A stretch of 64,000 bases of DNA from Plasmodiophora brassicae (GCA_036867785.1 CP145424.1:124001-188000), one strand, 5' to 3'; counted from the stretch's first letter, positions 39,471 through 64,000 are shown. Translations and numbers: made by a program. Notes: generated by a model from the sequence alone, not told the origin.

Positions 39471-40604
39471 CGATGGCTGAGATCACGGATCAGGGCGAAC
39501 CATCGACGCTGCTCGGCATGCGCATCCGTCGCGAACCTGCCACCGGCGCCATCATGCTCGACCAGGCCGAGTACATCGACAAGGTGTTGAGCGACTTCAA
39601 CATGCCACATTGTCACCCGGTCGACACGCCACATCAACCTGGCGTTCACCTGACGAAATCGATGAGTCCACAGACGGACATCGAACGGGACGAAATGACG
39701 AACAAGCCCTACCTGAAGCTCATCGGATGCTTGACATGGCTCGCCCATCGATGCCGTCCGGATATTGCGTATATCACGAACGTCCTCGCCCAATTCTCGT
39801 CGAACCCCGGCATCTCCCACTGGCGCGCGGGGCAACGCGTCCTCAAGTACCTCGCCGGCACGAAGACGCACGGCATTCGATACGAACGGCAACTCGAGGA
39901 TCGCCTGGTCGCTTACGCCGATGCCGACTGGGCCTCGGATGCGGACACGCGACGTTCCCGTTCCGGTGATATCATTCTGCTGGCCGGCGGTCCCGTGCAC
40001 TGGCAGTCGCGACGCCAGGACCTAGGCGCCGTTAAGGTTGGTTAGTCTGTCGTCAACGCACGCTGAGATCAAATCGCTCTGCGCTGTTACCCGTCAGCTG
40101 TCCTGGATCCGGTCGTTCCTGGCGGAGATCGGCTTCCCGCGTCCCGGCCCGACGATCGTACACGAAGACAACCAAGGCGCGAAGGCCTGGTCTGGCTACC
40201 GTCGGATGGACGATCGAACGAAGGATATCGAGGTCCAGTTCCACTACACCAGAGAGGCAGTCGAGGCCGGTCTGATTGTGGTCCACAAGTGCCCGTCCGC
40301 CGAGATGGCGGCCGACTACCTGACGAAGCCCGCCCTCAGCACTTCTTATCACCCGAACCTGATCCTGGCCGGCATCATCGACACCGGTACCAGGGCGTGT
40401 GCTGCTGGAGGGGGCGTGTCAAACAACATGTCCAGTACAACCAGCAGCACATGCCTGCAGCACCCCGTCACGCATTCCGAAACTCCGCGCTCGCCGCCGT
40501 TGGCAGCCGTTTCGTCGCCGGCGACTACGTCGCCACTGTAACGTCCACAGTGCCGTTGCGCAAACGCCGTACGAAATACACTCACTTCGTTATTGTCTTC
40601 CTTA
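39471..40604 (+). mobile_element. 3' fragment of a Ty1/Copia element (RT end, RNase H, PPT, 3' LTR 40417-40604)
   Basis: 'CRPDIAY', 'YADADWA', 'EDNQGA', 'TKDIEVQFHY'; frameshift near 40040; GAGGGGGCG PPT followed by TGTC. Highly similar to 40925-42050. Confidence 0.92.
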
Positions 40605-40666
40605 GGGTTGTCCTTTGAAGATGACGTGAGGACGCAGTAGTGTGCCGTTAGCTGTCACAGCGATTA

Positions 40667-43900: not shown

Positions 43901-46900
43901 GGATGCCGGACTCGTTGTAGAACAGGACGCACGCCTTGGAGTTGTACTCGCCGCCACCGTCAGTCTGGAACGTCCGGATACCACGTCCTTCCTGGTTGCG
44001 AAGACGCGCGTCATAGTGCTTGATGACGTCGAGCGCCTCCGATTTGCGACGTAGCAGATAGACGGACAGGTACCGAGAGGAATCGTCAAGCATGGTCTGG
44101 TAGTACTCAAAGCCGCCGACACCGACGACAGGCCACCGTCCGGACAGATCGCTATGGACGAGATCGCCAACACGACGCGCGCGCGACGTACTGGGAGGGA
44201 ATGATGACCGTTTGCCCTTGGCGAGTAAACATGCAGCGCATGGACATCGATCTTGCGGCCTCGGGATTGGCCCGTCGAACTTCATGCCACGACAACGTTT
44301 GTGCAGGATGCGCAGGTTGCCGTAACCCAGGTGGCCGGTTCGAGCGTGCCAGACAGCTGGAGCTGCGGCGGTGACCTTAGCGACGCGGCATGAGACGCTG
44401 GATGCGATCAAGGAGCAGACTCGGGCGGAATGAAGTGTGCCGGGCGCGGAGGTTGGAGCGGATAATGGAATCCGGTACAGGTTATCGTGTCCTCGTTGAC
44501 TGACGGCCACTGGCTGACCGACGGGCGCCGTCCAGTTGGCCCCCGAGTAGATCTTCGCGGTATCGCCGTCGAACACGATCTTGTGACCTGATCTGGTGAG
44601 CTGGCCAACTGATACTAGCGCTTGGCCAAGTCGGGGAACGTGCAGCGAATCGATACTCGTCGCCTGGACATCCATGCCGAATGACGTCACGCCTCGACCG
44701 GAAGTGGTCGTACGCGACAGATCGGCTAGCTCAACTTCCGGTCCGGTGCCTTGGCGATAGCAGCTGAGATGTCGGCGCAGGGGCGTCATCGTCGTGGAAC
44801 ACGCTGAGTCCAGTAGGCCTACTGAGTTCGCGTACACGTCGATGGCGTGGCGTGCCGACAAAGCACGCATCGGCTCGGGCGCCGGATCGATCGGATGAGC
44901 GCCAGACGTTGGATACTCGTTGGACGTTGGTGAGGATGTATTGCTTTTCGCGTTGCTGTCGCGGTACCAGATGTGTCGTTGCAGCGTGCATTCGCCGTTA
45001 GTGTGCTTGGATCCGGGATGGAAGACGCAGGACTCGTTGCGTCGTGGTCCACGGGGACGCGTCGATGTGGCACAACTGGAGCGGTTGGCCGTTTGGAACG
45101 CGTCGTGTCGGTCCCGCACGTCTTGGACTCTGATCTCCTCGCTTGTCAACGACCCGACGACCTCGGAGACACTGTGCAGCGTGTCCAGAGCACGATTGTG
45201 CAGGCCAGCGACGACGGCGTCGAGATCGGATGATGCGTTGGCCAAGATGAGGACGGCGACCAATGCGTCGGTGAGGGACAGCATCTCGGTCGGTACCGTC
45301 GACCGGACGCGATGAGCCGCTGCTTGAACTCGGGCGGCGTACGTGGCGACCGACTCGCCGGGCATGTGCTGGACCGTGACGAGGTCGCGGACGGCGCGCA
45401 CGACCGATGCCAGCGACGACGGGCTGTACGCCTGGAACAGCACGCGCCAGCACTTGGCAGCCGAGCCTGCCTGAAACAAATGTCGAGGACCATGTCCTAC
45501 CACCGGTACACGATGACGCTGTGACTGTGCGCGGCTGTGTCACGTCCACAACAGAGGCTCCGCCACCGTCGCCGTTGCCGGTAACGGCTTTGGCAAGCCC
45601 TGTTACACTGCGTTACGTCGCCATCGTCTCGCGCCGATGTCAGTGGAATAAATCACTTCGTTATCGTCTTCATCAGATTAACAGTCGTAACAGCGCTCTG
45701 GGCGTCTCGCTCGCGTCCAACGTCATGGCCGATCGCGGCCGAACGGCGGCGGAATCAGATGTCCAAGATCTCGACGCGCAGCTCGCTGAGGCCGAGCGAC
45801 AGGAGAAGATCGCGCGCATCGCATTCCTGCGACAGCAAACCGCATCGTACTCCTGCATCGCCACGACGCCGACGACGCAGCCTCGCCCAACCACTGTGGA
45901 CGGCGTAGTGCGTCCAGGTACAGATCGCGTGCCTCCGCCTCGGTTCGACGGCAAGCACGAATCGTTTGCCGCTTGGGCGCCCGCCGCCGCGTCTTGGTTT
46001 ACCAACCGTGGATTCGCGGGAATTGTCGGCATCGACCTGGACGGATCGCCGACTCCGAGTATCCCCGACAATGTGGACGAGGATCTGGAGGCAACTGCTC
46101 GGGAGATACTCTTGTTTCAGATGGTCGACAAGACCGTTCTGATCGGCTACAACTTGCTGTACGCCGGTACATCGACGCAATGCTGGCGCGCTCTCTTCCG
46201 CATGCTGCGACCCTGCACGTTTTCGTCTGTCATTCGTGCTTCTAAAGATTTGTTCAGTGTTCGACAGCAAGCCGGTGAATCGGTCGCCTTGTACGCGGCT
46301 CGTCTGCAAGCCGCTGCCCAACGTTTCCGTACAACAGTCCCGAACGACATGCTTCACATGACGGATTCCTTCCTGGCTGTCCTGATGGCTGGCAACGCCT
46401 CATCAGAATTGGACACGGCCGCATCCAACCTGCACAGTCGTGGACTCGAACCGCGGCCTACCGTCACTGAGGTCGCATCAGAAGAGCAGCGCATTCAAGA
46501 GGCTCATGCTGACCGGGAGATATCGTTCGCAACGGCGAACCGTGCAAGCGCTACCGCACACCCGATCAAGGCTCCCGAACGCGATGGACTGTGCGTCCTA
46601 CATACGACCTTGAGGAAGCCGCACACGAATGGCAACTGTTTCCTACAGCGCTCGTTGTGGCGGACGACATCGAATACATCGTCGCAACCCGATCAGTACG
46701 TCCCGGTTTGCGCCATGTCTGCCCGTCACCCCGCCGTAGACAACAGTTCCGTCGGCCTGCTGTCGAGGACCATGTCCTACCACCGGCACACGATGACATT
46801 GTGTGGGTGCGCGGCTGTGTCACGTCCACAACAGAGGCTCCGCCACCGTCGCCGTTGCCGGTAACGGCTTTGGCAAGCCCTGTTACACTGCGTTACGTCG

Positions 46901-48363
46901 CCATCGTCTCGCGCCGATGTCGGTGGAATAAATCACTTCGTTATTGTCGTTCTTAGATTAACAGTCGTAGCGTTCGCGCGCTTCGAGGCGGCGAGCCCGC
47001 CGGCGCCCGGCGCGCCGGTGCCATCCAGAGCCAGTCCCGCGTCACTGCGTCTCTGCCCTGACCCTGCTTCTGCACAACGCGCCACGAACGCCCACTCCAG
47101 TCGCGCCACGCGCCAGAGAGCCGAGGCAGATCGTGCAAGCAAGGCAGGCCGTCATTACGGGAATCCAGAACCAGTTCCGGGACGTAAGCGCCAGGCGTAC
47201 GCCGGTCGTACGGGCCTCAATCGCTTGCCTCAACCTCTTCTCGATATAACGTTGTCCGCCGGCGCCTTCGGCGTCGGTGTCGTCCCGAGCCAGGTCCTTC
47301 AGTCTCTGTCGTCACTGTCGACTCCGCCCCAGCATATCGCGCCATACATGTCAGCTCTAGCTACGCCACGATCAGTCTCGTGTCGCGTCAACAAGCCAAG
47401 ACATACAAGCACGAGCAAGGTCGTGTTGTACATGATCCAGAGTCGAAGATCCAGCCGGGACACGTCCGTTCGACCTCCAACGGCACGCAAGGACCATGTC
47501 CTACCACCGGTACACGATGACGCTGTGACTGTGCGCGGCTGTGTCACGTCCACAACAGAGGCTCCGCCACCGTCGCCGTTGCCGGTAACGGCTTTGGCAA
47601 GCCCTGTTACACTGCGTTACGTCGCCATCGTCTCGCGCCGATGTCAGTGGAATAAATCACTTCGTTATCGTCTTCATCAACAAAGACAACGCGGACGCGA
47701 TCTTGTGGTCCAGCATGTGGACGAGTAGAATCTCGCGCGCGGCTGCCTCGAGAGCTGGGTCGTGTGCCGTACCGGTTGTCGCAGTCGGCGAGCCATCTTC
47801 GTTGATCCCGATGACGTCCGCGTACCCACGATTGCGAAACCAGAGTGCAGCTGTCTGAACCCAGGACGTGAACGAGTCGGGAGTACCGTCGAACTTGGGC
47901 ATGGGCAGTCGGCCTGCGTCGCTTCGGCTGTGCGCCTCGGCGATGATCGGCATGGCCGGGGTCGATGGACAGCTGGTCGGACGCGCCAGCTGCTGCTGCA
48001 GGACACGGAGACGGTCGATCTTCTCCTGCCTGGCGATCGTTGCCTCCGCTTCGGCAATTCGGGTGTCGATCTCCTCGAGCGACAGATGACGCAGCGGGTC
48101 GTCATCCGTGTTAGGCGTCGCCTGGCGCTCAGCCATGGCGAGTAGAGGCTCAGCGCCTGCGCCTATACGACTGTTAATCTGAGAAAGACAATAATGGAGT
48201 GGATGTATTACGTACGGCGTGTGCGGCGGACGTTACAGTGGCGACGTAGTCGCCGACGGTGTAACGGTTGCCAACGCCGGCGGGCACGGAGTCGCGGAGT
48301 GCGTGACGGCGTTCACGTGCTGCAGGCATGTGCTGCTGGTCGTAGTGGATACGTTGTTCGACA
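40925..48363 (-). mobile_element. Ty1/Copia element, LTR type A (5' LTR 48180-48363, 3' LTR 40925-41107); gag-pol interrupted by an insertion at 45481-47679 and a frameshift near 43830
   Basis: 184/183-bp TG..CA LTRs, PBS GATTAACAGTCGTA and PPT GAGGGGGCG. Domain order PR (LLDSAC) - IN (VHSDL..TDGGGEY..EQNGRAE) - RT (KWVF, ARLCAQGF, HTDD) - RH. Confidence 0.95.
45481..47679 (+). mobile_element. Internally deleted Copia, LTR type B, with three LTRs (45481-45675, 46761-46955, 47490-47679) and truncated gag 45725-46760
   Basis: Perfect TSD ACAAA (45476-45480 and 47680-47684). The empty site is visible in the uninterrupted copy near 63830. PBS follows LTR1 and LTR2. Confidence 0.93.
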
Positions 48364-51300
48364 CATGGAACAGGGGCTACCCCGCAAGTGGAGGCGGAGG
48401 CTCCGAAGGCTTGCCTTCAAGAGATGGAATGTCTGGAGAACGAAGATGGGACCAGATCCGGCAGCCAAGGTCACACCTTGCCGAACGCGGTTAAGGCAGG
48501 GAGCGCGACCGTACCGTTGTAAGGCGCGGAGGTACAGCAAGGAACAAAGTGAGTTCCTGGAACAGTTCGTATCCCTGTTGAAGAAATACGGGTTGGTCTA
48601 TGAAAACTACAACAGTGAGTGGGCCTCACCGGTGGTTGTTGTTCGGAAACCCGGGAACAGAGGATGGCGAATGTGTGTTGATCTAAGAGAGGTCAACATG
48701 TTGTGCGAAGCAACTGCATGGCCGATGCCGTTCCTAGAAGCCATTGTGCAACACTTGGCAGGATCCAAGTATTGGTTCTCTTTGGACGCATTTAAGGGCT
48801 TTTGGTTAATGCCTCTGGCAAAGGAATGTCAGGAAATATTCTCGTTCGCGACAGACAGGGGAATATACACTCCTACCAGAACAATTCAGGGAGGGTTGAA
48901 TTCGTCGCCTCAGTTCCAGGCACGGATGGCAGAAATATTCTCCGAATTACTGATGAAGGCACTCATCATCTGGATTGATGACATTCTGGGGCATGCTAGA
49001 ACTGAACAAGAATTGTTCAGAGTGTTAGACATGACACTGCATGTGGCTGAGAAGCATAACCTGAAATTCAATCTGGATAAGTGCGACTTCTTCTTGAGGA
49101 AGGTGAAATTCGCAGGGCGTATCTTCACGCCAGAGGGAACCACCCATGATCCAGAGCGAATACGAGCGCTGCAAGAAATGCAGACTCCCAGGACTGCAAG
49201 AGATTTGCAGCAATTCCTATATGCGGTACAGTGGATGAGCAAGTCAATACCGGAGTACAGCCGTATTGCCTTACCACTGCAGGAGATTTATGAGAAATCC
49301 ATGAAGGATCAGCCGAAGCGTACCAGATCGGTCACCGGGGGAGTAAGACTGAAAAGGCATGGCTGGAGTGAACTGCATGACACAGCTTTTGAAGAGCTGA
49401 AGGAATTGATTGGGAGGAACACCCAACTAGCATATCCAAGGAAGGATATGATCCAGTGTGTGTTTGCAGATGCAAGCAAGTACCACAGGGCAGGAAGGGT
49501 AACGCATATTCCCATGGAGGACAGAGATCTTCCAACCTGGGAGGCCCATCACCAACCATTGGGTTTCTCAGGCCACAAATTCGCGGGTTCAGAACTTAAC
49601 TGGGCGACTCCAGATAAGAAAGCCAGCGCACTGTTGGATGTAGTGGAGAAACTGGAGTATCTCCTACAGACGGGAAAACCATTCAGATTGTACACGGATC
49701 ACAGGAACCTGATGCACATATATGACCCACAGAAGTGCACGCAACCAGCAGCGGAACGGCTGGAGCGCTGGGGTATGAGGTTGCGGAAGTACAACTTCGT
49801 CATTGAGCATATTCCTGGGGATAAGAACGTGTGGGCTGACCTGCAAACGAGATGGGGTGCAGAAACTGGTCTCGGAAGAGATGCTGATTTGGAACACCAA
49901 ATCGACACCGGACGGGTAAAGTACGGAGACACCACAAATGTCTTCCGAATACTCCGAATTCGAAGTGATGAGGATCGGGACAGTTATCCGGAAGCTTCGA
50001 ATGGGGGCGTGGGGAATGAGGATCAGGAGATACATCCGGAAACCCATGACCGCGGTGTACCCAATAACACGGGTGTGGAGAATGAGGATCAGGAGATACA
50101 TCCGGAAATCCACAAACGTTGGGGGCAATTCGCTGAGAAATTCAGAATCCAACCCACACTGGAAGAGAAGCTTATCTGGCCTACAGAAACTGAAATCAGT
50201 GAAAGGCAACTGAAATTCTTCACGAAGGATAAGCTACGCAACCTGAGGAAGAACGAGGCTGGGTTATGGGTAAACCAGCGAGGACAGGTTGTGATCCCAT
50301 CGGAAGATGTGGAGATGAGAGTCAGGTTGACGGTTATTGCACATGCTGCAGGACTTGCACATCGTAGCATTAACCAAATGACACTTCTACTGCGAAGTAA
50401 ATTCCTCTGGAATGGCATATCAGCGGACATTAAGCAAATCGCGAAGAACTGCTTACACTGCCGACCCACACGAGGTGGTGAGGTGCGTCCACGACCACTG
50501 GGTCCAGCATGCCATGCTAAAAGACGGGGAGAGGTGAAGAGGCGGGACATGATTTCAAATGGATACTGGTATTGAGAGACGACTTCTCGGGACTCGTACA
50601 CCTAGTGCCAACGATAGTACCTGACAGCTTGGTCACGGTACAGGCACTGATGGAATGGAGGTCCAAGAATGGCACACCTAAGACAATTGTGTCAGACCAG
50701 GCATCATACTTCATGTCAGAGGTAACCAGGGAGTATAACAAGCTGTGCAATGTGAAACAACATTGGACGACGGCTTATATACATTACCCGAACGGAACGG
50801 TGGAAGTGGTCAACAGACATGTACTGGCATTATTTCGTACAATCTGCTCAGACTTGAGATGGCAGAAGGAAGAATGGCCATGGCTGCTAAAGGTGGTGGA
50901 GCATGTGCTCAACCACCGGCCACAGCAACGACTTGGGGGCCGAGCGCCTGTGCAGGTTCACAGCGGGCTGGAACCTGACAACCCTCTGGATGGAATCTGC
51001 ATCAACCCCGTCAGGGAGACACAAATCAATGTCACAGAAATGACTTCTGATGAAATTGTGAAGCTCACTGATGAGCTAATAGCCGCGCTGAATCAGATGC
51101 ACAAGGAAGTCGCTGATCTCAGTGAACGCCAGAGAGCACAGCGGCGACAGAGGGTTTCGGAAAATCGTATCCCGCCGAATGTATATCCGGGAGATTTCGT
51201 CCTTCGAGCAGAAACGCTCAGAGCTGGTGAGAAATTATTTCTCAAATGGAGAGGTCCATATCGTGTCACAGACGTCCACTCGGGATATGTCTTCGAGGTC

Positions 51301-52099
51301 GAAGACATAATCAGTGGGGACAAACACGTGGTACATGGTAGCCGACTTCAATTCTACTGTGATAAGAACCTCAACATCACGGAAGAGCTCAGGGAGCAAA
51401 TCGCCTATGACAACGCCAAATGGGAAATTGACACGATATCTGATGCACGCATGAATCGTGAACAAACCTTGGAGTTACTCATCAAATGGCGCGGCTTCAG
51501 CGAGGATGAATCCTCATGGGAGCCAGCTCGAATCATCATTGAAGACCAACCACGAATGGTGCAGGAATTCATCGATGAACACAAAAGTCATGCATTGGCA
51601 ACAGTGTTGCAGGACATGATGCCGCAACAATCCAATGTCATGAATCGTAGGTCATCACAACCGAAACAGGTGAAGGCCAAGCGGAAGTCGACGGGTAAGG
51701 CAGAAGCCAACGCCAAGCGTCGACGGCGCCGCAACTGAACACCGCACAGTTGTAGCCACTGGGCAAAATAGTTTTTAGTGGGTTTAGCGGGTGAGCACGA
51801 TGCAAGCCCCGCAGTACCTTGAAGTGGACTTCATGGTCTCAGGGCCGCTCGACATCGTATCGTCGAGGTCCAACGCAAAACGATTGTTGCGACGGACTAG
51901 GGAAAACATAACCTACGGAAGAATGATTCCCACATAATTTTTTCTAGCAAGCTTAACTACAACATGTAATGTGCAAGACACGATTTATTCTGTACAGCAA
52001 GACGTCTACAGCGCCAACAACAGGGTCAAAGCGCAACAGGGGGACTTTAGCTTGACGAGGGGAGTGTATCATATGCACAGCCTAGCTGCTGAAAAACGC

Positions 52100-52171
52100 G
52101 GGCGCCGCTGGGAATCGAACCCAGGGCCAACGGTTGAACGTACCGCTGCTGTACCACTCAGCTACGGCGCC
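52100..52171 (-). tRNA. tRNA-like cloverleaf in the TRIM 3' LTR (GTT at the anticodon position, non-canonical loop)
   Basis: GGCGCCG-TA-GCTG/AGTGGTA/CAGC-A-GCGGT/ACGTTCA/ACCGT-TGGCC-CTGGG/TTCGATT/CCCAG-CGGCGCC-C. A and B boxes are intact. Confidence 0.85.
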
Positions 52172-52339
52172 TGAAGTCCGACTGGCGTGAGGATTGGATG
52201 TATGTAATTCCTGACACGCCCCCTCAATCCGTAGCCAGGTGTGACGATGGTGTCTGTCCTGGGATCTACTACGGAAGAGGGCCCATTGGCGCCACGCATT
52301 TCTGTATGGCTATGTATAGCGCATACGACTGTTAATCTG

Positions 52340-52344
52340 AAAAA
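52340..52344 (-). terminator. T5 Pol III terminator after the LTR tRNA (second copy at 52092-52096)
   Basis: ...GGCGCCC-GCG-TTTTT-CA at the LTR end. Confidence 0.6.
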
Positions 52345-52347
52345 CGC

Positions 52348-52419
52348 GGGCGCCGCTGGGAATCGAACCCAGGGCCAACGGTTGAACGTACCGCTGCTGT
52401 ACCACTCAGCTACGGCGCC
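52348..52419 (-). tRNA. tRNA-like cloverleaf in the TRIM 5' LTR (identical copy)
   Basis: Identical to 52100-52171. Confidence 0.85.
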
Positions 52420-52725
52420 TGAAGTCCGACTGGCGTGAGGATTGGATGTATGTAATTCCTGACAGCTGCACCTATGATGATCACGGTCACACCTTGAACC
52501 GGCATGCAACTCCGCTAGACCACAACTACCGGAAACTCCGGGCAGGCACAGTCAACAGTCCCACAAGGTCCAGTCATGTGTTCCCAGAATAGACCGCGGA
52601 CTCCGGAGACCGTGGCGGACTCCGGAGACACACTGGAGGTTGGCAGACCAGCGGGCCAGGAATATATCAGAGTTCGAACTGCTTTTCGATGACAACGTCT
52701 CAATGCTAGATTGAGAGATGTCACA

Positions 52726-55700
52726 GAACCCTTGAGCGCAGAGACGAGCGCTGAACTTACGGATGCCACCGTCGCCACTGAGCGAAGACTTGACCCGGAA
52801 CACCCACTTGGCGCCAACAGCGATCTTACCTTTCGGCAGGTCGATGAGCGGGCCGAACGTGCCCTTGGAGTCCAGCGTTGCCATCTGGGTGAGGGCAGCG
52901 TCCCACCAGTGGCCGGCGAACGACGATGAGAGGGCCTCGGCCATCGTATTAGGAACAGGAACATCGATCGCTTTCAGACTCGACAGATCGGGTCGTGGTA
53001 GAGCTGCTGGGTCGATTGGCGCCTGTATCTTAACGCGGCAGGCGGAGACAATGCCACCACGAGCGGCCGGTCGATGGGATCGGATGGCCTCGCGGATGAG
53101 CCGGCGTTCTTCGACCTGTTGCCAGTGGTGAATCTGGCGGCGCGATGGGCGTGGCGGACGTTGAATTGGGGCTCTCAGCACTGGGTGCTGGAACCAGGCG
53201 TCCACCGTTGACGCCCACCGGGTGGAGGACCGGTTTGCCTTCGCGGGACCCTTCCACCATTCGCCCGGTGGTTGACGGTGACGTGTAGATCGACGAGGAT
53301 GCGGCATGTCCAGAACATCGTCGTCGGCGACGACATCAGCCGCAATATCCATGTCAGCAGGAGAGTCATCACCATCGTTGGCGGCATCAGCCGCAATATT
53401 CATGTCAGCAGGAGAATCAGCACCAGCGTCGTTGCCGGCCTCCTGATGGTCCTTAACGTCGGCATCAACGATGCTGGATGCGCGGTTGCCGTCGTGGTTA
53501 TCAGCGTCGACAGCAGCGTCGTTACCAGAATGACCGACGTTGCCGGCGAGATCAGGCAGGGGAGCATGATGGGTATGCGCAGATGGTTGAAGACGATCAG
53601 ATGACGGAGACTGTCGAACTCCATATCCAGCAGCACACTCGTGCAGCACACCGACGCTGCCACGCACTCCGCAAGTCTGGTGTCAGCGCCGCCCGCGATG
53701 ATGTAACGTGCACCGCGTCTCACGTCTACGACGTTGCCCGTCACACCCAATATCTTCGCTCTATATCCATCAATATATCTCACTCTGATTTCGTCGTTTC
53801 AGAGACGACACGACATTGGATGACACCGGAACGGGGGACGCTGATGGTAGCCGTGGGATAACGGCGTCGGCAGCAGCGGGTGATGATGTACGAACGGCAA
53901 CGGTGGACGGGGAACTGGACGCGAGTACGGGCGCGGCCTGTGAAGACTCGAGACCAGAGTTCGACCGCCCGAAGCCGAAGGTGAACGACGTTTCCAGGAA
54001 TTCGGCCGTCGTGCTCTCGAATGTGTCACCTCGTTCGACGTCATAGAAGCGCCATGCCTTCATCCCTGGCGTAAAGCCGATGAATACAGCGCGAACGCGA
54101 CGATGATCCAGCTTGGTCGGCTTCTTCGAAGAGGGGTGAGGGCGCATGGCGTACGCGTCGCAGCCGTAGACGCGCAGGGAAGAGACATCAGGTTTAGCGA
54201 AGCGAGCCGCCTGGAACGATGAGCGACGCCCCGGAAGGACGGATCGAGGATGGACATTGTAGAGGACGGCAGAATACGAGAGCGACCAGGGCCAGGTGAA
54301 ATCGGGCATACGCGCGTGACACCGGATAGCGCCTTCGATACAGCACAGGCTGTAGTTGACAATTTCGGCTCGGCCGTTCTGCTCGGGCGTATACGGAACC
54401 GACTTGCGATGAAGGATGCCGGACTCATTGTAGAACGTAACGCATGCCTTGGAATTAAACTCGCCCCCGCCGTCTGTTTGGAAGTCGGAAATGCCACGTC
54501 CCTCCTGGTTGCGTAGACGTGCATCGTAGTGCTTGATGACATCGAGGGCGTCCGATTTTCGACGGAGCAGGTAGACGGTCAGGTAGCGCGTTGAATCATC
54601 AAGCATGGTCTGGTAATACTCGAAACCGCCAATACCGACGACAGGCCACCGCCCGGAGAGGTCACTATGGACGAGATCGCCAACGCGACGTGCTCGTGAC
54701 GTACTGGGAGGGAATGATGAGCGCTTGTCTTTGGTGAGAAGACAGGCCTCGCATGGACATCGATACTGAAGCTTGGGAATGGGCTGATCGAAAGCCATTC
54801 CCCGACAGCGGCGCTGCAGGAGACGCAGATTGACGTAGCCGAGATGTCCAACGCACGCGTGCCAAAGGGCGGGCGATGCGGAGGCGACTGTGGCGGCGCG
54901 GCAGGACACGCTGGGCGCAGCCGATGAATAAATTTCAGTTGACGATGGGGCAGCGGGAGCACGCAGGGCGATCCTGTAGAGATTATCGGCTCCTCGCGTG
55001 CTGACCGCTAGCGGGGTCCCGACAGGGGACGTCCAGTGGTCCTTGGAATAGATGGTCGCGTTGGGCCCATCGAAGACGATCTTGTGCCCGGATCGGGTGA
55101 GCTGTCCAACGGAGACGAGCGCTTGGCCGAGTCGTGGGACGTGCAGCGAATCGATAGGCGTCATCTGGGACTGATCAGCGCCCAATGACGTCACGCCACG
55201 TCCGGAAGTGGTCGTACGAGACAGGTCTGCAAGTTCAACAGTCGGTCCGGCGACATGTCGGTAAGCGCCGAGATGCTCGCGCAGGGGCGTCATTGTGGTG
55301 GAACATCCAGAATCGAGCAGGCCGACGGAGCTGTTGTCTACGGCGGGGTGACGGGCAGACATGGCGCGAACCGGGACGTACTGATCAGGTTGCGACGATG
55401 TATTCGATGTCGTCCGCCACAACGAGCGCTGTAGGAAACAGTTGCCATTCGTGTGCGGCTTCCTCAAGGTCGTATGTAGGACGCACAGTCCATCCCGTTC
55501 TGGAGCCTTGATCGGGTGTGCGGTGGCGCTTGCGCGGTTCGCCGTTGCGAACGATATCTCCCGGTCAGCATGAGCCTCTTGAATGCGCTGCTCTTCTGAT
55601 GTGAGCGTGGACACGACCTCAGTGACAGTAGGCCGCGGTTCGAGTCCACGACTGTGCAGGTTGGATGCGGCCGTGTCGAATTCTGATGAGGCGTTGCCAG

Positions 55701-56445
55701 CCATCAGGACAGCCAGGAAGGAATCCGTCATGTGAAGCATGTCGTTCGGGAGTGTTGTACGGAAACGTTGGGCAGCGGCTTGCAGACGAGCCGCGTACAA
55801 GGCGACCGATTCACCGGCTTGCTGTCGAACACTGAACAAATCTTTAGAAGCACGAATGACAGACGAAAACGTGCAGGGTCGCAGCATGCGGAAGAGAGCG
55901 CGCCAGCATTGCGCCGATGTACCGGCGTGCAGCAAGTTGTAGCCGATCAGAACGGTCTTGTCGACCATCTGAAACAAGAGTATCTCCCGAGCAGTTGCCT
56001 CCAGATCCGCGTCCACATTGTCGGGGATACTCGGAGTCGGCGATCCGTCCAGGTCGATGCCGACAATTCCCGCGAATCCACGGTTGGTAAACCAAGACGC
56101 GGCGGCGGGCGCCCAAGCGGCAAACGATTCGTGCTTGCCGTCGAACCGAGGCGGAGGCACGCGATCTGTACCTGGACGCACTACGCCGTCCACAATGATT
56201 GGGCGAGGCTGCGTCGTCGGCGTCGTGGCGATGCAGGAGTACGATGCGGTTTGCTGTCGCAGGAATGCGATGCGCGCGATCTTCTCCTGTCGCTCGGCCT
56301 CAGCGAGCTGCGCGTCGAGATCTTGGACATCTGATTCCGCCGCCGTTCGGCCGCGATCGGCCATGACGTTGGACGCGAGCGAGACGCCCAGAGCGCAGTT
56401 ACGACTGTTAATCTGAAACGACGAAATCAGAGTGAGATATATTGA
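52726..56445 (-). mobile_element. Ty1/Copia element, LTR type C: 5' LTR remnant 56414-56445, gag-PR-IN from 56364, RT cut by the Gypsy at 52725
   Basis: PBS 56400-56413; 'LLDSGC', 'VHSDLSG', 'TDGGGEF', 'KWVFRVK', 'ARLCAQGF|'. Confidence 0.94.
53612..53801 (+). mobile_element. Solo Copia LTR (type C, 190 bp) inserted antisense into its own family
   Basis: TGTCGAAC...TTTCA with perfect TSD GAGAC. Its last 32 bp equal the reverse complement of 56414-56445. Confidence 0.93.
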
Positions 56446-56664
56446 GGGTCGTCAGAATTAGCCCTATCTGGTCCGGGAGAAGCGCTTCTAGCGGTACGCT
56501 TCTTTTGCTAAGAAGCTGCTTCTCCGGATAAGAAGCTCGGGTGCACCCTGCTTCAAACTCTGAAGAAGCAGCTTCTCCCCGGAATGAGCGCGGTGGCGGT
56601 CTTTTTGATCGGGTGACGTCGGGTATGCGACAGAGATTACAGTGGCCTGCGCTGTCCATCAACC

Positions 56665-57969
56665 ATGCCATCGAAGGAGAACGCTTCGGAGAGGCACCAG
56701 ACCCTTGCTGCGCTAGACAGCATGATCAGAACGATGGTCGTTGACGAAAGCACTTGCAGAGCACTCAATCCGCAGCGAGCACTGGCGATCCGCAACGAAA
56801 TCACGCGGCTCCTTGAGTTGAAATGGGGAATCACATGCCATCGTTATATGCTACCTAGGAGAATTATCCCCAAGGGCAATTACCTGTACCGTGTTCTGTC
56901 CGGGCTCGACGACACGGAGTTCAAACAGGACATGAGAGTTTGCAAATCGACTTTTGCGTACATCGTCCACCTTCTCCAGGGTGACCTTTCGATTCTTCCG
57001 TTCTGGTGACTGCTTATTTCCCTGACAAATGCTGTCTTAGGCGACCCAATATTTCACAATGAATCCCGCCACCAGCAGGCACCCGTCTGGGTCCAACTTG
57101 CCGTCGCACTTGATTCCCTGGGCAGAGACGGCTCAGCGGCTTCGACTGACTGTGGGAAGCGGCGAATTGGCGTCGCCTACGGGACTGCGAAGGCCTTCTG
57201 TCGTCGAGTTATTGTCGCCTTGAACAGGCTGGCGAAGCGTTTCATAACGTGGCCTGATGTTGAAGAAAGACGCCGACTCTGTGCGCGATCGGCTGCCTCT
57301 GGGTTCCGTTACGCGGTTGGAGCAGTCGATGGAACGGACTGTGTCTTGGCCTTTAGACCGAGCTTGGACGGTGAGACTTGGTATTCCCACAAGGGGCATT
57401 ATGCGATGAAGGCCATTATCGTTGGCGACGACCGCCGCCTGATCAGGTATGTCCACATTGGGTGGCCTGGTTCGGTCCACAATTCGACAATGTGGGCCTC
57501 GTCAGACCTGCATCGCCATCCCGAGCAACATTTTTCCGACAACGAATATCTCATCGGTGACGCTGGCTTCACTCTATCGTGCGAGCATAGGCTACTGGTC
57601 CCGTATAAGCGCCCCAAGTCTTCTCTCCCCGACAACGCGAAGTTCAACCAGCTGCTGTCGAAATATAGGGTCATGATCGAAAACTTGCTTGGCATCCTCA
57701 AGGGACGCTTTCCATCGCTTCATGGCAACCGACTTCGCCTCACGAATCCCGCCGACTGCGAGAATGCTGCTATGTGGGACATAGCATGTATGGTGCTGCA
57801 TAACATCGTGATTAGCCTCAACAATACCGACGATAACGTCGAGGAGTACGTGGCTCAGGAAATCGACAAAACGGATCATAAGCGAATTTATCAGTCCGAC
57901 GAGGACTGGCGAAAGTCCATTCAGGCGGAGGTACTACAATGGGCACACATGAATGAAGTAAAACTGTAA
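56665..57969 (+). CDS. Harbinger (DDE_Tnp_4/HARBI1-type) transposase with one intron (56981-57040)
   Basis: Splicing gives a continuous frame with 'GAVDGT', 'GWPGSVHN', 'YLIGDAGF', 'RVMIENLLGILKGRF', 'ACMVLHN'. Confidence 0.92.
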
Positions 57970-57976
57970 TCCTTGC

Positions 57977-58420
57977 TTAATGTGTATTATCAGAATCTGG
58001 AAATACGCTGCCCAGGATTTCTCGAATTTCAGCGTTCGTCTTGCCTTGCGCCGCGAGATCTTTGACAAGGTCAGCCTTGAGTGTCTGGACTTTCAACTGG
58101 TACTCCCTTTCCCTCAGGCAAAGGTCTTGCTCCCTGAACCGCCTTTCTTCTTCATATTTTTCTCGTTCGAATGCAAGTTGACGTTCTTGATATTTTGTGT
58201 ACACGGTCGTGAAGTCACGCCTAGGGCGCTTGGTATTCTTATCGCGAGGAGGCCACGTGGACGAGGGCCGCTTAGGCGATGCATCCGGGCCGAGATCACC
58301 ACCTTGGGCGTCATTACCATCAGCGCCGGGATCTGTGCTGGAACTACTTCCCTCACTTGAAGTCCTGCAGTCGCCAGCAGTATTTTCCACCTGTTGAAAT
58401 GCTGTTGTCAAAACTCTTGC
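57977..58420 (-). pseudogene. C-terminal part of the Harbinger accessory (normally Myb/SANT-like) ORF, truncated by the Gypsy insertion
   Basis: Convergent with the transposase; low-complexity region, 'KRPRR' and a charged coiled coil. The DNA-binding domain itself is not visible. Confidence 0.65.
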
Positions 58421-61400
58421 TGACAGGAGATTCCTCAGACGCGTACACAGTTAAGGCTGGAGACGTCGGCGTCGTGCTGCGAAGACATAGCGGATTCGGA
58501 CCCGACACCTATTGTTATGGCACGGCTGTTATGGCACGGCCGCGACGGGGGTCGCGCGGGGGTCGCGCAGCCGCGCAGTTTGAATAAACGTCCACGGCAA
58601 CCGACGGCTTCGGCAGTCGGTTAATTCCGTGTTGTGGAGACAATAGTCGTCCGTCGTGTCGTCTCCTGACATCTTAACCGACCTTAACCGTTCGTCACCG
58701 TCTGTCGTCGCATCGTCTGTCGCTGTCTGTCGTCACCGTCTGTCGTCGCATCGTCTGTCGCCGTCTGTCGTCACCGTCTGTCGTCGCATCGTCTCTCGAT
58801 CGTCTACCTTCGGCCTGTCCGCCCCCTTCGTTCTTCGCTCGTGTACGTCTCGATGACGGTCACGCGCTCCGGCTCGACGGGCTCGACGGCTGACGAAGCC
58901 AAGTGCCCAACGACGCCTCCCTCTCCCATCGACCCAACGACCTTGGCCGATGTGGACGCCGCCGATCGCGCCCTCGCGGGTGCCTTACGGGCCTTCCAGA
59001 TCCAACAGGATGCGTTCTTCACGGAAATGCGGGCTCGCGCTGAGGAGCAGCTGAAGATCTTTACCAACGCGCTTGCCAGTCCACACTCTACGCCGCCTAC
59101 GCCCATGACCGATCCCTCGGCAACATCTGCTGAGCCGTCGTCACATGGCAACGATCCTGTTGTCACGACGACTAAGGTGTCGTTGAGCGAATTTTCCGGC
59201 AATTCCGACGACCTGCCGGCGAGCGAGTGGCTGGCGCTATTCGCTAGCATTGCCCGCGTCGATCTCTCGTCGACCCAGCCACTGTCAGCGGGCGCTCGTG
59301 CGCTCCTGGCTAGCTGCCTGAAGGGCGAAGCGCGTTTCGTTTTTCGTCAACTGGATGCGACCGCCTCCCCAGCCGCGTTCGCCGCGCTGCTCCGGTTTAA
59401 TTTTCCAGAACCGGACGTCGAGACCCTCGAATCCCGGTTCGATGCCCTTCGTCAAACGGGACCGTTCGATGCTCATCTGCGTCGGTTCATGTACCTGTAC
59501 AACGCCGTACAGTCGGCCTCGAAGGGCGAGTACAGTCTCCCGTCAAAGCGCCTGGCGACGAAGTTCCGCAAGTCGCTCGCCCCAGAGCTTTCGACCGAGC
59601 TCTTCAAGCTCAATCCGCCGACATTCGACGCCATGGTCAAAGAGGCAGCGCGCCTGGCCCCCCTCTATGCCCCGGCACACGCGCTCCTAGCTACGGATGC
59701 CTCGCCGACCACTCGGACCAAGCTAACGCCGGAGGAGCGCGAGCGCTGCAAACGGCAAGGATTGTGCATGTATTGCCGGCAGCCCGGCCATATGGTCGCA
59801 ACATGCCCACATCGTCCGCCGGGAAATGGTCAAGGGTGACTGCTCCCGGGTTGGCAGCTCACCCTCTCTCGATACACGAATGTTCTTCGTCCTCGCAACC
59901 CGACACTGTCCTCGTCACTGCTCTTTGTTTCGCAACTGTTCATTCATCTCATCATTTATTCGTTCCGTTTCAATCCACGGGCGATCGCCCGTGGGCGACG
60001 ACGGCCCTTTTGGACTGTGGAGCGACATCTTCCTTCGTCGACGCCGGTTTCGCCCGCCGCTATGGCCTGCCACTCCGCTCCAAAGCACAACCGATTCCAG
60101 TCAAGGTTGTTGACGGCCGTCACCTGCCACCGATCACATTGGAGACGGCGCCATTGCCGTGTTCCGTCAACGGGGCCTTCCACGACACAATTGTCCTCAA
60201 CGTTATTGACGCTCCGAGTCACCGTATAATCCTGGGACTGCCCTGGCTCGAACAGCACAATCCGGATATCGACTGGCTTCGTCGCACCGTACGCGAACGC
60301 ATTACTCGGGGATCACCGCGTTTGTGGCTCGATGCTCGGGCCGGTGGGAACCCCACCGGCTCTGCCGACACGGTTGCCTGCTCTGCTGACACGGTCGCCC
60401 TTTCTGATGCCACAGTCGCCTGCTCTCCTGACACGGCCGTCTGCTCTCCTGACACGGCCGCGTTATTATGCTGCGCCGAGGGGTTGCCCGTCGAACCCGG
60501 CCCGCTTCCGAGCGCACCGCCTTTGGACATTGATCACTTCGTCGCCTCGTCGTCTCCCGTTACTGCCCAGCCGTTACCACCGGTGGGTGCTTCTCTGGTC
60601 GCCGTCGACGTTCCGGAACTAGTGCAGCCTGCGCCTGCTACTGACCAGCCATTAGTGCCGGTGGCTGCTTCTCTGGTCGACGGTCCGGAACTCGTGCCGC
60701 CCGTGTCTGCCGCTGGTCGACCAGAGAATTCCGCCGCACCGCCTGAGTCGGCGACCGCAGCTGCCGCCACTGTTCCGCCACCGCTTCCGCCTCTTTCGTG
60801 CTTGGCACCGGCCCCCTCTTGTTCAGAACATCCCTCGGTTTCGCCGGCACGTCGCCGCGCGGGTCGACGCGCCCCTTTCGCCTGCTCAGGGCGCAGCAGT
60901 CCACACGGGTCACTCGCCTCCCAGCTGTGTGCGCTCGTGGGGCTGGTCGCCCTCCTGGTATTGATTGCCAACAGCTCCGCCCCGAGACGTGCGCCTTCCA
61001 TGCTTCCGGATCCCTGCGTCATCGACAACGCCTTGCTGACTTCCGTGCCACAGGCCTCCACGTCGTCGTCGGTTGGAACGGATCCGTCGACTACCTACGG
61101 AGCCGCCAGGCGAACCTGTGGAGCCGCTCTCCATCGCGTTTGTTTCCGCCGAACCGTTCTTAGACGACGTGCAAGACGGCGCAGACTGCTATGCCATCCA
61201 CTACACATGGTCACCGTCCGATTCCGCTGCCCACGCCGCGGAACTACCGCCGCAATATCAGGAGTTTACTGACGTGTTCGATAAGGCGAACTCAACGACT
61301 CTTCCTGATCACCGATCGTTCGACTGTCCGATTGACCTGAAACCTGGTGGCGACCCGCCGTATTGCCGTCTGTACGGGCTGTCACCCCGGGAACAAGAAG

Positions 61401-63157
61401 CCTTGAAGGAGTATCTCAGGATCAACCTGGAAGCTAATCTCATTCGTCCATCCCGTTCATCGGCGGGCGCCCCAATTCTGTTCGTCAAGAAGAAGGACGG
61501 TAGTCTTCGCCTGTGCGTAGATTACCGTGGTCTAAACTCTGTTACTATCAAGAACCGATATCCGGTTCCACTTATCGACCAGCTCTTGATCCAGCTCGGC
61601 TCCGGAACAATCTTCACGAAAATCGACCTCCGCAGCGCCTATAACCAAGTTCGGATCCGAGAAGGCGATGAGTGGAAGACGGCCTTCCGCACGCCGTACG
61701 GCTTGTTCGAGTACTTAGTCATGCCGTTTGGCTTAGCCAACGCGCCGGCCTCCTTCCAGTACTTCATGAACGAGACGTTCAAGGATTTCCTTGATGTATT
61801 TGTGGTAATCTACTTGGACGACATCCTGATCTACTCATCGACTCCCGAGGACCATGAACGCCATGTCCGTCTCGTCCTACACCGACTCCGCACTGCTCAA
61901 CTCCACGCTAAACTGGAGAAGTGCGTCTTCAATACGGACGAAGTGGAATTTTTAGGTTTCTTGGTGTCCTCCTCCGGGATACGGGTTGAACCCTCCAGGA
62001 TCGATTGCATTCTCTCGTGGCAACAGCCGACCGACGTCCACGGGGTGCAGGTGTTTCTCGGGTTCGCTAACTTCTATCGCAAGTTCGTTCCCCACTTCGC
62101 AGAGCTGGCCTTACCGCTGACAAATCTCACGCGTGATAACGTGCCGTTTCGTTGGGATCAATCGGCAGACGCCGCATTCACGGCGCTCAAGGTTGCTTTC
62201 ACGTCAGCCCCTGTCCTTGCTCATTTCGACCCAGATCGCCCGTGCGAAGTGGAAACGGATGCTTCCGATTTCGCGGTGGCAATGGTCTTGTCGCAGCGGG
62301 GCCCCGATGATGAACTTCACCCGTTGGCATTCTTCTCGCGCAAGCTCGCGCCTACTGATATCAATTTTCCTATCTACGACAAGGAACTTCTCGCGGTCGT
62401 CCAGACCTTCGAAAAGTGGCGTCAGTTCCTGGACTCATCGCGACACCAGACCGTCATCCACAGCGATCATCGGAATCTGGAATACTTCACCAGCACTCAC
62501 AAACTGAATCGTCGTCAAGTCCGATGGTCCCAACTGCTTAACGAATTTGATTTCGTTATCCAACACCGACCAGGCCGTCTTCATGGCAAGGCGGACGCCC
62601 TGACTCGTCGCCCCGAATACGCGCCTTCTGATCAGGATGAGGTTGTGCTCCAGCAGTCACTCCTGCTCCTTCCAGCGTCGCGGCTCGGGCCAGGACCCCT
62701 ACAGGAGGTCCAGATCAACGTGGCCGATACTACAACCGACGCACTCCTCGATCGTATCCGCCGCAACCAAGCTTCCGACCCGTTTGTGTGCCGCACCCGT
62801 CAGCGACTTCATCGTCCGAGCGGCCGCCACTTTAGCGTCCGAGACGACGTTCTATACCGTGGACATTCTGTGGTCGTCTCTGGCGATGACTGCAAACTGG
62901 ACATTCTTCGCTCTTTCCACGATAATGTCACGGCGGGCCACCTCGGTATTCGGAAAACCGTGCAGTTAATTCGCCGCGAATTTTGGTGGCCGGGTTTGAC
63001 CCCTTTCGTAGCCCGTTACGTGCTCTCCTGCGATACGTGTCGTCGGACTAAGACGGCTCGGCACAAGCCCTTCGGATTACTCATGCCACTCCCTCTGCCG
63101 ACGACTCTTTGGCGGTCCATTTCCATGGACTTCGTGGTTAAGCTTCCCTGTTCGAAC
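58421..63157 (+). mobile_element. Ty3/Gypsy (Tf1/sushi-like) element: 5' LTR 58421-58671, gag 58853-59839, pol truncated in integrase
   Basis: LTR TGACAGGAGA...TCTCCTGACA. CCHC '[14 protein letters not shown]', PR 'LLDCGA', RT 'LRLCVDYR..YLDD', RH 'ETDAS..DKEL', IN 'GHLG..CDTC..SISMDF'. One frameshift between PR and RT. Confidence 0.95.
59821..59827 (+). promoter_or_regulatory. -1 ribosomal frameshift heptamer G GGA AAT at the gag/pol overlap
   Basis: X XXY YYZ pattern in the gag frame, three codons before the stop. The protease ORF lies in the -1 frame. Confidence 0.75.
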
Positions 63158-64000
63158 TGTCGAACAACGTATCCACTACGACCAGCAGCACATGCCTGCA
63201 GCACGTGAACGCCGTCACGCACTCCGCGACTCCGTGCCCGCCGGCGTTGGCAACCGTTACACCGTCGGCGACTACGTCGCCACTGTAACGTCCGCCGCAC
63301 ACGCCGTACGTAATACATCCACTTCATTATTGTCCTTCTCAGATTAACAGTCGTATAGGCGCAGGCGCTGAGCCTCTACTCGCCATGGCCGAGCGCCAGG
63401 CGACGCCTAACACGGATGACGACCCGCTGCGTCATCTGTCGCTCGAGGAGATCGACACCCGAATTGCCGAAGCGGAGGCAACGATCGCCAGGCAGGAGAA
63501 GATCGACCGTCTCCGTGTCCTGCAGCAGCAGCTGGCGCGTCCGACCAGCTGTCCATCGACCCCGGCCATGCCGATCATCGCCGAGGCGCACAGCCGAAGC
63601 GACGCAGGCCGACTGCCCATGCCCAAGTTCGAAGGTACTCCCGACTCGTTCACGTCCTGGGTTCAGACAGCTGCACTCTGGTTTCGCAATCGTGGGTACG
63701 CGGACGTCATCGGGATCAACGAAGATGGCTCGCCGACTGCGACAACCGGTACGGCACACGACCCAGCTCTCGAGGCAGCCGCGCGCGAGATTCTACTCGT
63801 CCACATGCTGGACCACAAGATCGCGTCCGCATTGTCTTTGTTTCAGGCAGGCTCGGCTGCCAAGTGCTGGCGCGTGCTGTTCCAGGCGTACAGCCCGTCG
63901 TCGCTGGCATCGGTCGTGCGCGCCGTCCGCGACCTCGTCACGGTCCAGCACATGCCCGGCGAGTCGGTCGCCACGTACGCCGCCCGAGTTCAAGCAGCGG
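63158..64000 (+). mobile_element. Ty1/Copia element, LTR type A (5' LTR 63158-63341, PBS 63342, gag from 63385), running off the window
   Basis: Near-identical inverted copy of 47680-48363 joined to 45320-45480. Confidence 0.95.

Follow-up and report, generated by a model that had tools for sequence, protein, structure and literature searches.

The 64,000-nucleotide (nt) stretch of the Plasmodiophora brassicae genome considered here (GCA_036867785.1 CP145424.1:124001-188000; hereafter, the window) ends in a transposon nest that occupies its 3′ third. The nest (38000–64000) has a G+C content of 50–62%, as against 62–75% in the gene-rich part (1–38000; 53% in 34–38 kb beside the nest). It houses a guild of long terminal repeat (LTR) elements, namely, two autonomous Copia families (A and C), a derivative with three LTRs and a gag piece, and a 375-bp terminal-repeat retrotransposon in miniature (TRIM), all of which carry the same 14-nt sequence, GATTAACAGTCGTA. 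Judged by its letters and its placement, this 14-mer is probably the minus-strand primer binding site (PBS) through which these recently active elements engage the anticodon arm of tRNA-Asn(GUU).

Family A is represented by two copies, E1 on the minus strand and E3 on the plus strand, and follows the order of the Ty1/copia group (Pseudoviridae), that is, gag, protease (PR), integrase (INT), reverse transcriptase (RT), and RNase H, with an RT of the RVT_2 type. E3 begins with a 184-nt LTR at 63158–63341 (+; TGTCGAAC...CTTCTCA) and extends past the window end. E1 (40925–48363, −) is bounded by a 184-nt 5′ LTR (48180–48363) and a 183-nt 3′ LTR (40925–41107), which are identical at 182 of 185 positions; the polypurine tract (PPT) GGAGGGGGCG lies immediately 5′ of the latter (41108–41117, −). 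Its coding region (40953–45480, −) is split into two frames. One encodes gag-PR-INT, with the domains Retrotran_gag_2, Pol_BBD, gag_pre-integrs, and rve; the downstream frame (P0001) encodes the INT C-terminal end, RT, and RNase H, with SH3_retrovirus and RVT_2 (169.9 bits). The end of gag is interrupted by the three-LTR element at 45481–47679. E1 is flanked by CCATG and GATAG and has no target-site duplication (TSD), and the near-identity of its LTRs in the absence of a TSD points to recombination between two copies. The flank beside its 5′ LTR resembles the E3 flank over about 8 nt. At 39470–40605 (+) lies the 3′-terminal part of another Copia copy, in inverted orientation and ~84% identical to E1; it has the same PPT (GGAGGGGGCG) and an LTR that starts with TGTCAAAC, and its PBS is gone.

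Family C is represented by E2, whose leader and coding region (52552–56399, −) run through gag-PR-INT to 53770 and then into the start of RT, where the frame stops early near 52720. The U5 end of its LTR starts at 56414; a single LTR copy is present in the window, so the full extent of this LTR is not readable there. E2 (P0002) contains Pol_BBD, gag_pre-integrs, rve, and SH3_retrovirus domains, and the coding DNA of families A (E1) and C (E2) is ~77% identical. Where the long frame of E2 stops, 34 nt made up of the family C LTR end and the two initial letters of the PBS recur in inverted orientation (53770–53803, +).

The 2.2-kb derivative inserted in E1 gag (45481–47679, +) is a non-autonomous composite of three LTRs (45481–45675, 46761–46955, and 47485–47679) within one 5-bp duplication, ACAAA. 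Its order is LTR (type B), PBS, gag piece, LTR (type B′, with a TA end), PBS, 520 nt, and LTR, and its first leader, together with the gag piece, shares 97% identity with the E2 counterparts. The first and third LTRs agree at 191 of 195 positions, the differences being confined to the first 5 nt, where the third is unlike the other two. Across the guild, the TG...CA LTR ends and 5-bp TSDs typical of Ty1/copia elements recur: the LTR starts read (A, B, B′, and TRIM) are TGTC, except in the third composite LTR, the family C start lying outside what was read, and two of the three two-ended insertions, the TRIM (GCAGC) and the composite, have a 5-bp TSD, E1 being the exception.

The TRIM (52090–52464, −) consists of two identical 127-nt LTRs (52338–52464 and 52090–52216) and a 121-nt internal part, and is flanked by GCAGC at 52465–52469 and 52085–52089. 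Its PPT, GAGGGGGCG (52217–52225, −), is the same as that of family A, with which it also shares 15 nt of PBS and TGTC...TCA termini; its mobilization probably depends on family A or a relative. Each LTR harbors a tRNA-like gene for RNA polymerase III (pol III), at 52348–52419 (−) in the 5′ LTR with an identical copy at 52100–52171 in the 3′ LTR, comprising an A box (TAGCTGAGTGG; LTR position 53), a B box (GGTTCGATTCC; position 96), and, immediately ahead of the LTR end, a T5 run (position 121). Both copies score 57.6 bits in the Rfam tRNA model (gathering score 29) and are called tRNA by ARAGORN and Rfam alike (Asn by anticodon). The predicted loop, ACGUUCA, has C at positions 33 and 37, which by the general rules of tRNA architecture makes a working tRNA unlikely. 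The TRIM and composite insertions are genuine and young, considering the 127/127 LTR identity and intact GCAGC of the former and the ACAAA of the latter.

Six exact copies of GATTAACAGTCGTA occur in the window (0.01 expected; six reached in 0 of 100 shuffles). Three are on the plus strand, after the first and middle LTRs of the composite (45676–45689 and 46956–46969) and after the E3 LTR (63342–63355); three are on the minus strand, in E1 (48166–48179), the TRIM (52324–52337), and E2 (56400–56413). Allowing one mismatch adds no site on either strand of the window; at three or fewer mismatches there are eight sites versus 1.91 expected, the added pair (28932 and 35899) being at chance level in unrelated host sequence. 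As read from the flanks, an LTR end stands directly 5′ of all six copies (...TCA in five, ...TTA at 46955), a gag ATG follows 30–36 nt 3′ of the site in the coding elements, and TGG is absent from the 14 bases of all six sites. The six copies, their coordinates, the adjoining LTR ends, and the missing TGG were all claimed in an original prediction made from this sequence, and all were recovered by the window search and flank reading. The 14-mer is, in its sequence context, placed like a minus-strand PBS.

Family A accounts for both 63342 and 48179, and the leaders that follow 45676 and 56413 share 97% identity, so that the six copies represent four independent downstream contexts (A, B′, B/C, and TRIM), preceded by five different LTR ends. 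When the six sequences are aligned from LTR end through leader, the last LTR base plus the 14-mer form the sole long invariant block, and whole LTRs of different families are 49–64% identical in global alignment. The invariance of the 14-mer despite such diverged LTRs and leaders argues for a constrained cis signal as opposed to recent copying. The base immediately 3′ of the 14-mer differs among the contexts (A, G, T, and T); it is T in E3, which accounts for the 15 nt common to E3 and the TRIM.

A site devoid of TGG might serve self-priming of the Tf1 type, in which an element's transcript folds its own 5′ end onto the PBS, where that end is cut and primes, a mode predicted for some plant Copia lineages (TAR; Neumann 2019, PMC6317226). 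Such priming needs a complement of ~11 nt. Among the six LTRs, runs of complementarity to the PBS never exceed 6 nt, two LTRs have none of 6 nt or more, and the search of both strands gave no extra motif copy near any LTR; self-priming is therefore rejected as very improbable. A PBS for a tRNA 3′ end was also rejected, in that no TGG is found at or next to the LTR end, a judgment made by TGG rather than against the full host tRNA set. By these measures, neither a tRNA 3′ end nor the element's own 5′ end, the two fits that had been named in advance as fatal to anticodon-arm priming, is the better match. The TRIM's own tRNA-like product was likewise discarded as a primer, as its LTR lacks any complement to the PBS of 6 nt or more.

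What the site does resemble is the complement of a tRNA interior. Its complement, TACGA-CTGTTAA-TC, is laid out as a 5-nt stem strand, a 7-nt Asn loop, and two final bases able to pair with the stem strand, and corresponds to positions 27–40 of actual tRNA-Asn(gtt) genes. As such, it is by its letters a natural tRNA-Asn(GTT) anticodon arm, as had been proposed, and the PBS resembles that of Hemivirus-type elements in being complementary to an internal anticodon-arm segment in place of the 3′ CCA end. Completed to a 17-mer arm (stem-CTGTTAA-stem), it matched 63 viral contigs; over all 64 loci it occurs 66 times, 59 times in ARAGORN tRNA calls (56 Asn(gtt) and three long calls labelled Ile(aat)) and seven times outside them. 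The bare 14-mer complement, whose locus set overlaps that of the 17-mer, is less specific, with at least 142 occurrences in viral loci and at least 66 in Asn calls. The longer 22-mer predicted from the TRIM has one match among metagenome contigs, within an ARAGORN tRNA-Asn(gtt) of bacterial type with encoded CCA.

A homology search places the host as P. brassicae: a tubulin-cofactor-D open reading frame of the window has 100% identity to a protein recorded by NCBI under that species; a protein-atlas comparison gave no placement. The host tRNA-Asn was approached through contigs of sequencing runs from infected plant or spores. Of 24 runs listed, 20 contain a 10-kb host stretch of the window, and the contigs of four were aligned, at 80% likeness, to a metagenome (bacterial-type) tRNA-Asn gene carrying the exact arm. 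In all four runs, an ungapped contig spans tRNA positions 21–59 with 33 of 39 positions identical and six differences (38 positions in the X13 piece); one minor contig variant has seven differences. Three runs yielded contigs of 59–75 nt at depths of 319, 992, and 269, such short, high-depth contigs being accounted for by a multicopy gene with differing flanks, and the fourth gave a 293-nt contig at depth 4.7 that includes a leader and a T-rich trailer. The tRNA-Asn-like gene is 74 nt long. Its loose ends on the plus strand of L001, GACCAGTTGCGCCACTCAGAC and CGTCCGAGCCCGGG, are the reverse complements of positions 1–20a and 60–73, and read as tRNA they provide a pairing acceptor stem, the D-stem 5′ strand GCGC, and the T-stem 3′ strand CCGGG. 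GCGC at 10–13 in turn implies GCGC at 22–25, which is the D stem required by the extended site of the TRIM. The 21-letter loose end has no locus in the viral contigs. A separate contig of depth 2 in one run resembles the tRNA of another organism.

The expectation that the host tRNA-Asn would carry the arm therefore stands in part: the run contigs contain a tRNA-Asn-like gene that has the D stem foreseen from the TRIM and agrees with the reference at 33/39 of positions 21–59, while the arm letters within 26–48 were not individually read. Pairing with the observed 61–65 strand places at least two of the six differences at 49 and 51, which leaves at most four in 26–48, and we infer that all six can be accommodated at position 26, the variable loop (44, 45, and 47), and the T stem (49 and 51). 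These unplaced differences leave room for an alternative in which tRNA-Asn does prime, with a host tRNA that departs by one anticodon-stem base pair, an imperfect duplex (a G-U pair or a mismatch), and a PBS kept by descent; tRNA-Asn anticodon stems do differ among eukaryotes. This alternative is rendered unlikely by the recurrence of the same 14 bases in six copies and four contexts despite diverged flanks, as expected from copying of the primer in each cycle, and by the possible placement of every difference outside 27–40.

A second element of complementarity lies just beyond the 14-mer. GCGCT, the complement of tRNA positions 21–25, stands 3′ of the PBS in all four independent leaders, at a distance of 1 nt in the TRIM (52318–52322, −), 3 nt in B/C (45693–45697, +, in the composite; 56392–56396, −, in E2), 8 nt in B′ (46978–46982, +), and 9 nt in family A. 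It lies within 14 nt after the PBS in 4/4 leaders, versus 2.25% of 17-nt windows in the region. The family A box is longer, GCGCTGA (63365–63371, +, in E3; 48150–48156, −, in E1), and complements positions 20–25, reading host TC from the run contigs and then AGCGC; its last two letters match the host-contig TC at 20 and 20a, unlike the bacterial reference. In the TRIM, the 14-mer continues into TGCGCT (52337 to 52318, −), and the longer match claimed for this element is real, amounting to 20 bases complementary to tRNA-Asn positions 21–40, not 21, judged against as much of the host tRNA as was read. PBS and box are colinear with one continuous tRNA segment (positions 20–40), the bulge falling on the element side, and the two may constitute a bipartite primer site as judged from these matches.

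The 14-mer might alternatively be conserved for some other reason, such as priming by another host RNA or a packaging or dimerization signal, with its likeness to tRNA-Asn incidental. The host anticodon stem is known only indirectly from contig alignment, all the elements are related, so that conservation is partly descent, and Copia lineages can exchange a tRNA-type PBS for another conserved motif at the same place, as exemplified by the conserved hairpin site that stands in for the PBS of fungal GalEa elements (Donnart 2017, PMC5445492). Against this, the complement has the full logic of an anticodon arm, the completed arm is nearly confined to tRNA-Asn genes, the TRIM match reaches into a D stem that is present in the host-run tRNA-Asn, a box matching positions 20/21–25 accompanies the site in every independent leader, and the 14-mer is no hairpin or palindrome of the GalEa kind. 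We consider an incidental likeness improbable.

Priming by tRNA-Asn, the favored reading, can be cast in mechanistic terms. In LTR elements generally, the primer's 3′-OH faces the initial base of the PBS, and extension starts with the complement of the last U5 base. The PBS would pair with positions 27–40 of cytoplasmic tRNA-Asn(GUU), a stretch that opens with the 5′ strand of the anticodon stem, takes in the loop in full, and ends two bases into the 3′ strand, while the nearby GCGCT would pair with the 3′ strand of the D stem (21–25) across a bulge of 1–9 nt. Because the PBS abuts the final A of the LTR and complementarity ends at 40 (pairing at position 41 would call for C in place of the LTR's A), the predicted primer is a 5′ portion of the tRNA with C40 as its last base, cut within the stem between 40 and 41. 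The tRNA used by copia is cut after position 39. Plus-strand strong-stop synthesis would copy the primer back and halt before position 26, renewing exactly these 14 bases in each generation, and such renewal would leave 14 invariant bases followed by a variable one. The TRIM and the three-LTR derivative would be copied in trans. Within this scheme, we infer the identity of the host tRNA across 27–40, the 40/41 cut, the agent of cutting, and the role of the second box.

Half-tRNA priming with cleavage after about position 40, as initially proposed, thus retains the position of the PBS, the match to the arm, and a geometry that converges on 40; it needs amendment insofar as the fragment must end at C40, within the stem, for which ordinary 5′ halves are too short. 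Since halves cut in the loop would be too short to serve as primer here, cutting of an annealed tRNA at the end of the duplex is favored over the use of ready-made halves, and we lean modestly toward the former.

Several considerations weigh against tRNA-Asn priming. Part of the conservation of the 14-mer is shared descent, as the four contexts belong to one related Copia lineage. The primer fragment and the strong-stop DNA are deduced from DNA sequence. Position A37 of tRNA-Asn normally carries t6A and G34 may be queuosine, and both would lie inside the proposed duplex. The GCGCT box is a post hoc sighting, though its sequence was preset by the tRNA. Host positions 26–48 enter as an identity total with the difference sites unlisted, and one anticodon-stem base pair may differ in the host tRNA-Asn. 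Finally, the assignment of the contigs to the parasite, as opposed to plant or contaminant, is tentative, deriving from high depth in three runs.

Priming by tRNA interiors has an established literature. A short tRNA segment as primer sets apart the genus Hemivirus (International Committee on Taxonomy of Viruses profile, PMC8515867), and in Drosophila copia and yeast Ty5 this is the anticodon stem-loop of iMet (PMC8515867, PMC5371799, PMC10886601), the Ty5 cut having been attributed to RNase P (Ty3 review, PMC5371799). The P. brassicae elements resemble copia and Ty5 in belonging to the Copia superfamily, in a PBS that directly adjoins the 5′ LTR and is matched to the anticodon arm instead of the CCA end, and in their predicted need for a 3′-truncated tRNA; they differ in the tRNA (Asn(GUU), not iMet), in a rhizarian host, and in a primer that is predicted from DNA sequence.

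A comparable site is that of FunCo1, a Copia element of Pezizomycotina whose PBS, ATTAAGAGTCT, lies right after the LTR and complements an internal part of tRNA-Lys (Donnart 2017, PMC5445492). It occupies the same anticodon-loop register as the sites described here and is one letter off the corresponding part of these sites, ATTAACAGTC, the odd letter being opposite the first anticodon base. FunCo1 nonetheless differs in using tRNA-Lys where tRNA-Asn is proposed here, in its ascomycete hosts, and in that no second box is reported in the text available. Candida elements have internal tRNA-Arg and tRNA-iMet sites (Zhang 2014 review, PMC4139406), and the PBS of Candida albicans Tca2 (gamma LTR), like the present one, matches the interior of a non-initiator tRNA, in that case tRNA-Arg(UCU) and in another host (PMC4139406). 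Among plant Copia elements, half-molecule sites for tRNA-Ile characterize Bianca, and for tRNA-Met Osser, Bryco, and Gymco-II (Neumann 2019, PMC6317226); there too, half-molecule sites are confined to Copia and the primer type is characteristic of a lineage, whereas tRNA-Asn figures solely as a 3′-end primer, in 2% of elements (PMC6317226). The second box finds a parallel in the bipartite PBS of Ty1 and Ty3, where extra short boxes pair with other parts of the primer tRNA (PMC5371799). The box described here is by contrast adjacent to the PBS and colinear with it (D-stem 3′ strand), is separated by a variable bulge, and has a putative function.

TRIMs with tRNA-like LTRs have been named Helenus and are described from fungi, animals, and Selaginella (Kojima 2024, PMC10886601). 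Fungal Helenus elements, including those of rust fungi, make 5-bp duplications and have an anticodon-loop PBS in common with their Copia partners (PMC10886601). The P. brassicae TRIM has the same layout (Helenus/TRIMp3): it is shorter than 1000 bp, has two LTRs each with a tRNA-derived sequence bearing pol III A and B boxes, has a non-coding internal part that starts with a PBS and ends with GAGGGGGCG, and combines a 5-bp TSD with a PBS shared with co-resident Copia elements, in the manner of the fungal type. As in Helenus (PMC10886601), the PBS has no complement in the tRNA-like part. The host sets it apart, as the words 'Rhizaria' and 'protist' are absent from the available text of PMC10886601. 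By layout and cis features, this TRIM is Helenus-like and resides in a rhizarian; an origin independent of the described Helenus families is possible.

The original prediction had also suggested that the priming mode may be an undescribed variant, an idea that is not supported. Besides iMet, the Arg, Lys, Ile, Tyr, and Asp tRNAs have already been published as primers acting through the anticodon arm (PMC10886601, PMC6317226, PMC5445492, PMC4139406), and tRNA-Asn-GTT is mentioned once, as having been chosen a single time as primer among fungal Helenus TRIMs (PMC10886601); the wording there is ambiguous, since apparently the same class is given as Asp twice and as Asn once. Beyond PMC6317226 (3′-end use) and PMC10886601, nothing clear on tRNA-Asn as a half-primer was found in the portions of the literature available, and supplements may hold more; for P. 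brassicae transposons, the literature search returned general repeat statistics only. The mechanism is of a known kind; new are the tRNA (previously mentioned once at most, and then ambiguously), the host group, the Helenus-like TRIM in a rhizarian, and possibly the second box.

The broadest formulation is one that we favor by a slight degree. A single bipartite site, composed of a 14-nt arm PBS and a D-stem box joined by a variable bulge, would dock a 40-nt 5′ fragment of tRNA-Asn for the whole guild. Beyond fungi, animals, and plants, neither half-tRNA priming nor a Helenus-type TRIM would then have a precedent, and the guild would offer the clearest case of tRNA-Asn as a half-primer and of an extended pairing for which the D arm of the fragment has to open.

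If correct, tRNA-Asn and a rhizarian host join the short list of half-tRNA primers, and the switching of primer tRNAs within the anticodon-arm mode would be widespread in Copia and not a peculiarity of flies and yeast. There are practical corollaries as well. LTR elements reportedly dominate the repeats of P. brassicae (pangenome preprint, 10.64898/2026.10.14.759018), and PBS software keyed to tRNA 3′ ends will miss or mislabel such elements. As ARAGORN and Rfam call the genes in the TRIM LTRs tRNA, tRNA-Asn gene counts would be inflated. The invariant 14-mer and second box offer a simple signature for guild members and for the question of the nuclease acting at tRNA positions 40/41.

The Copia proteins of the nest have a homologue at 89% identity in P. 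brassicae, others at 59% in metagenome polyproteins encoded on contigs of roughly 5 kb, and a further tier at 33–47% in metagenome proteins, within which the named homologues in the homology listing come from fungi, animals, plants, and an oomycete. A search of viral contigs for relatives of the E1 polyprotein gave 69 pattern matches, none of which was confirmed.

The remainder of the nest is populated by other transposons. Two Gypsy/chromovirus pieces (48146–51738 and 58688–63208, both +) encode RT, RNase H, and integrase, with a chromodomain in the first, and family A Copia elements have inserted into both. A sequence near 58673 that may be an LTR end (...CTGACA) leads into TCTTAACCGACC, where TGG is likewise absent. 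An open reading frame with a DDE_Tnp_4 transposase domain (101 bits) at 57010–57969 (+) marks a DNA transposon. In the gene-rich part, ARAGORN calls a 92-nt tRNA-Arg(tct) at 14844–14935 (−), presumably intron-bearing, which scores below the gathering score in the Rfam tRNA model.

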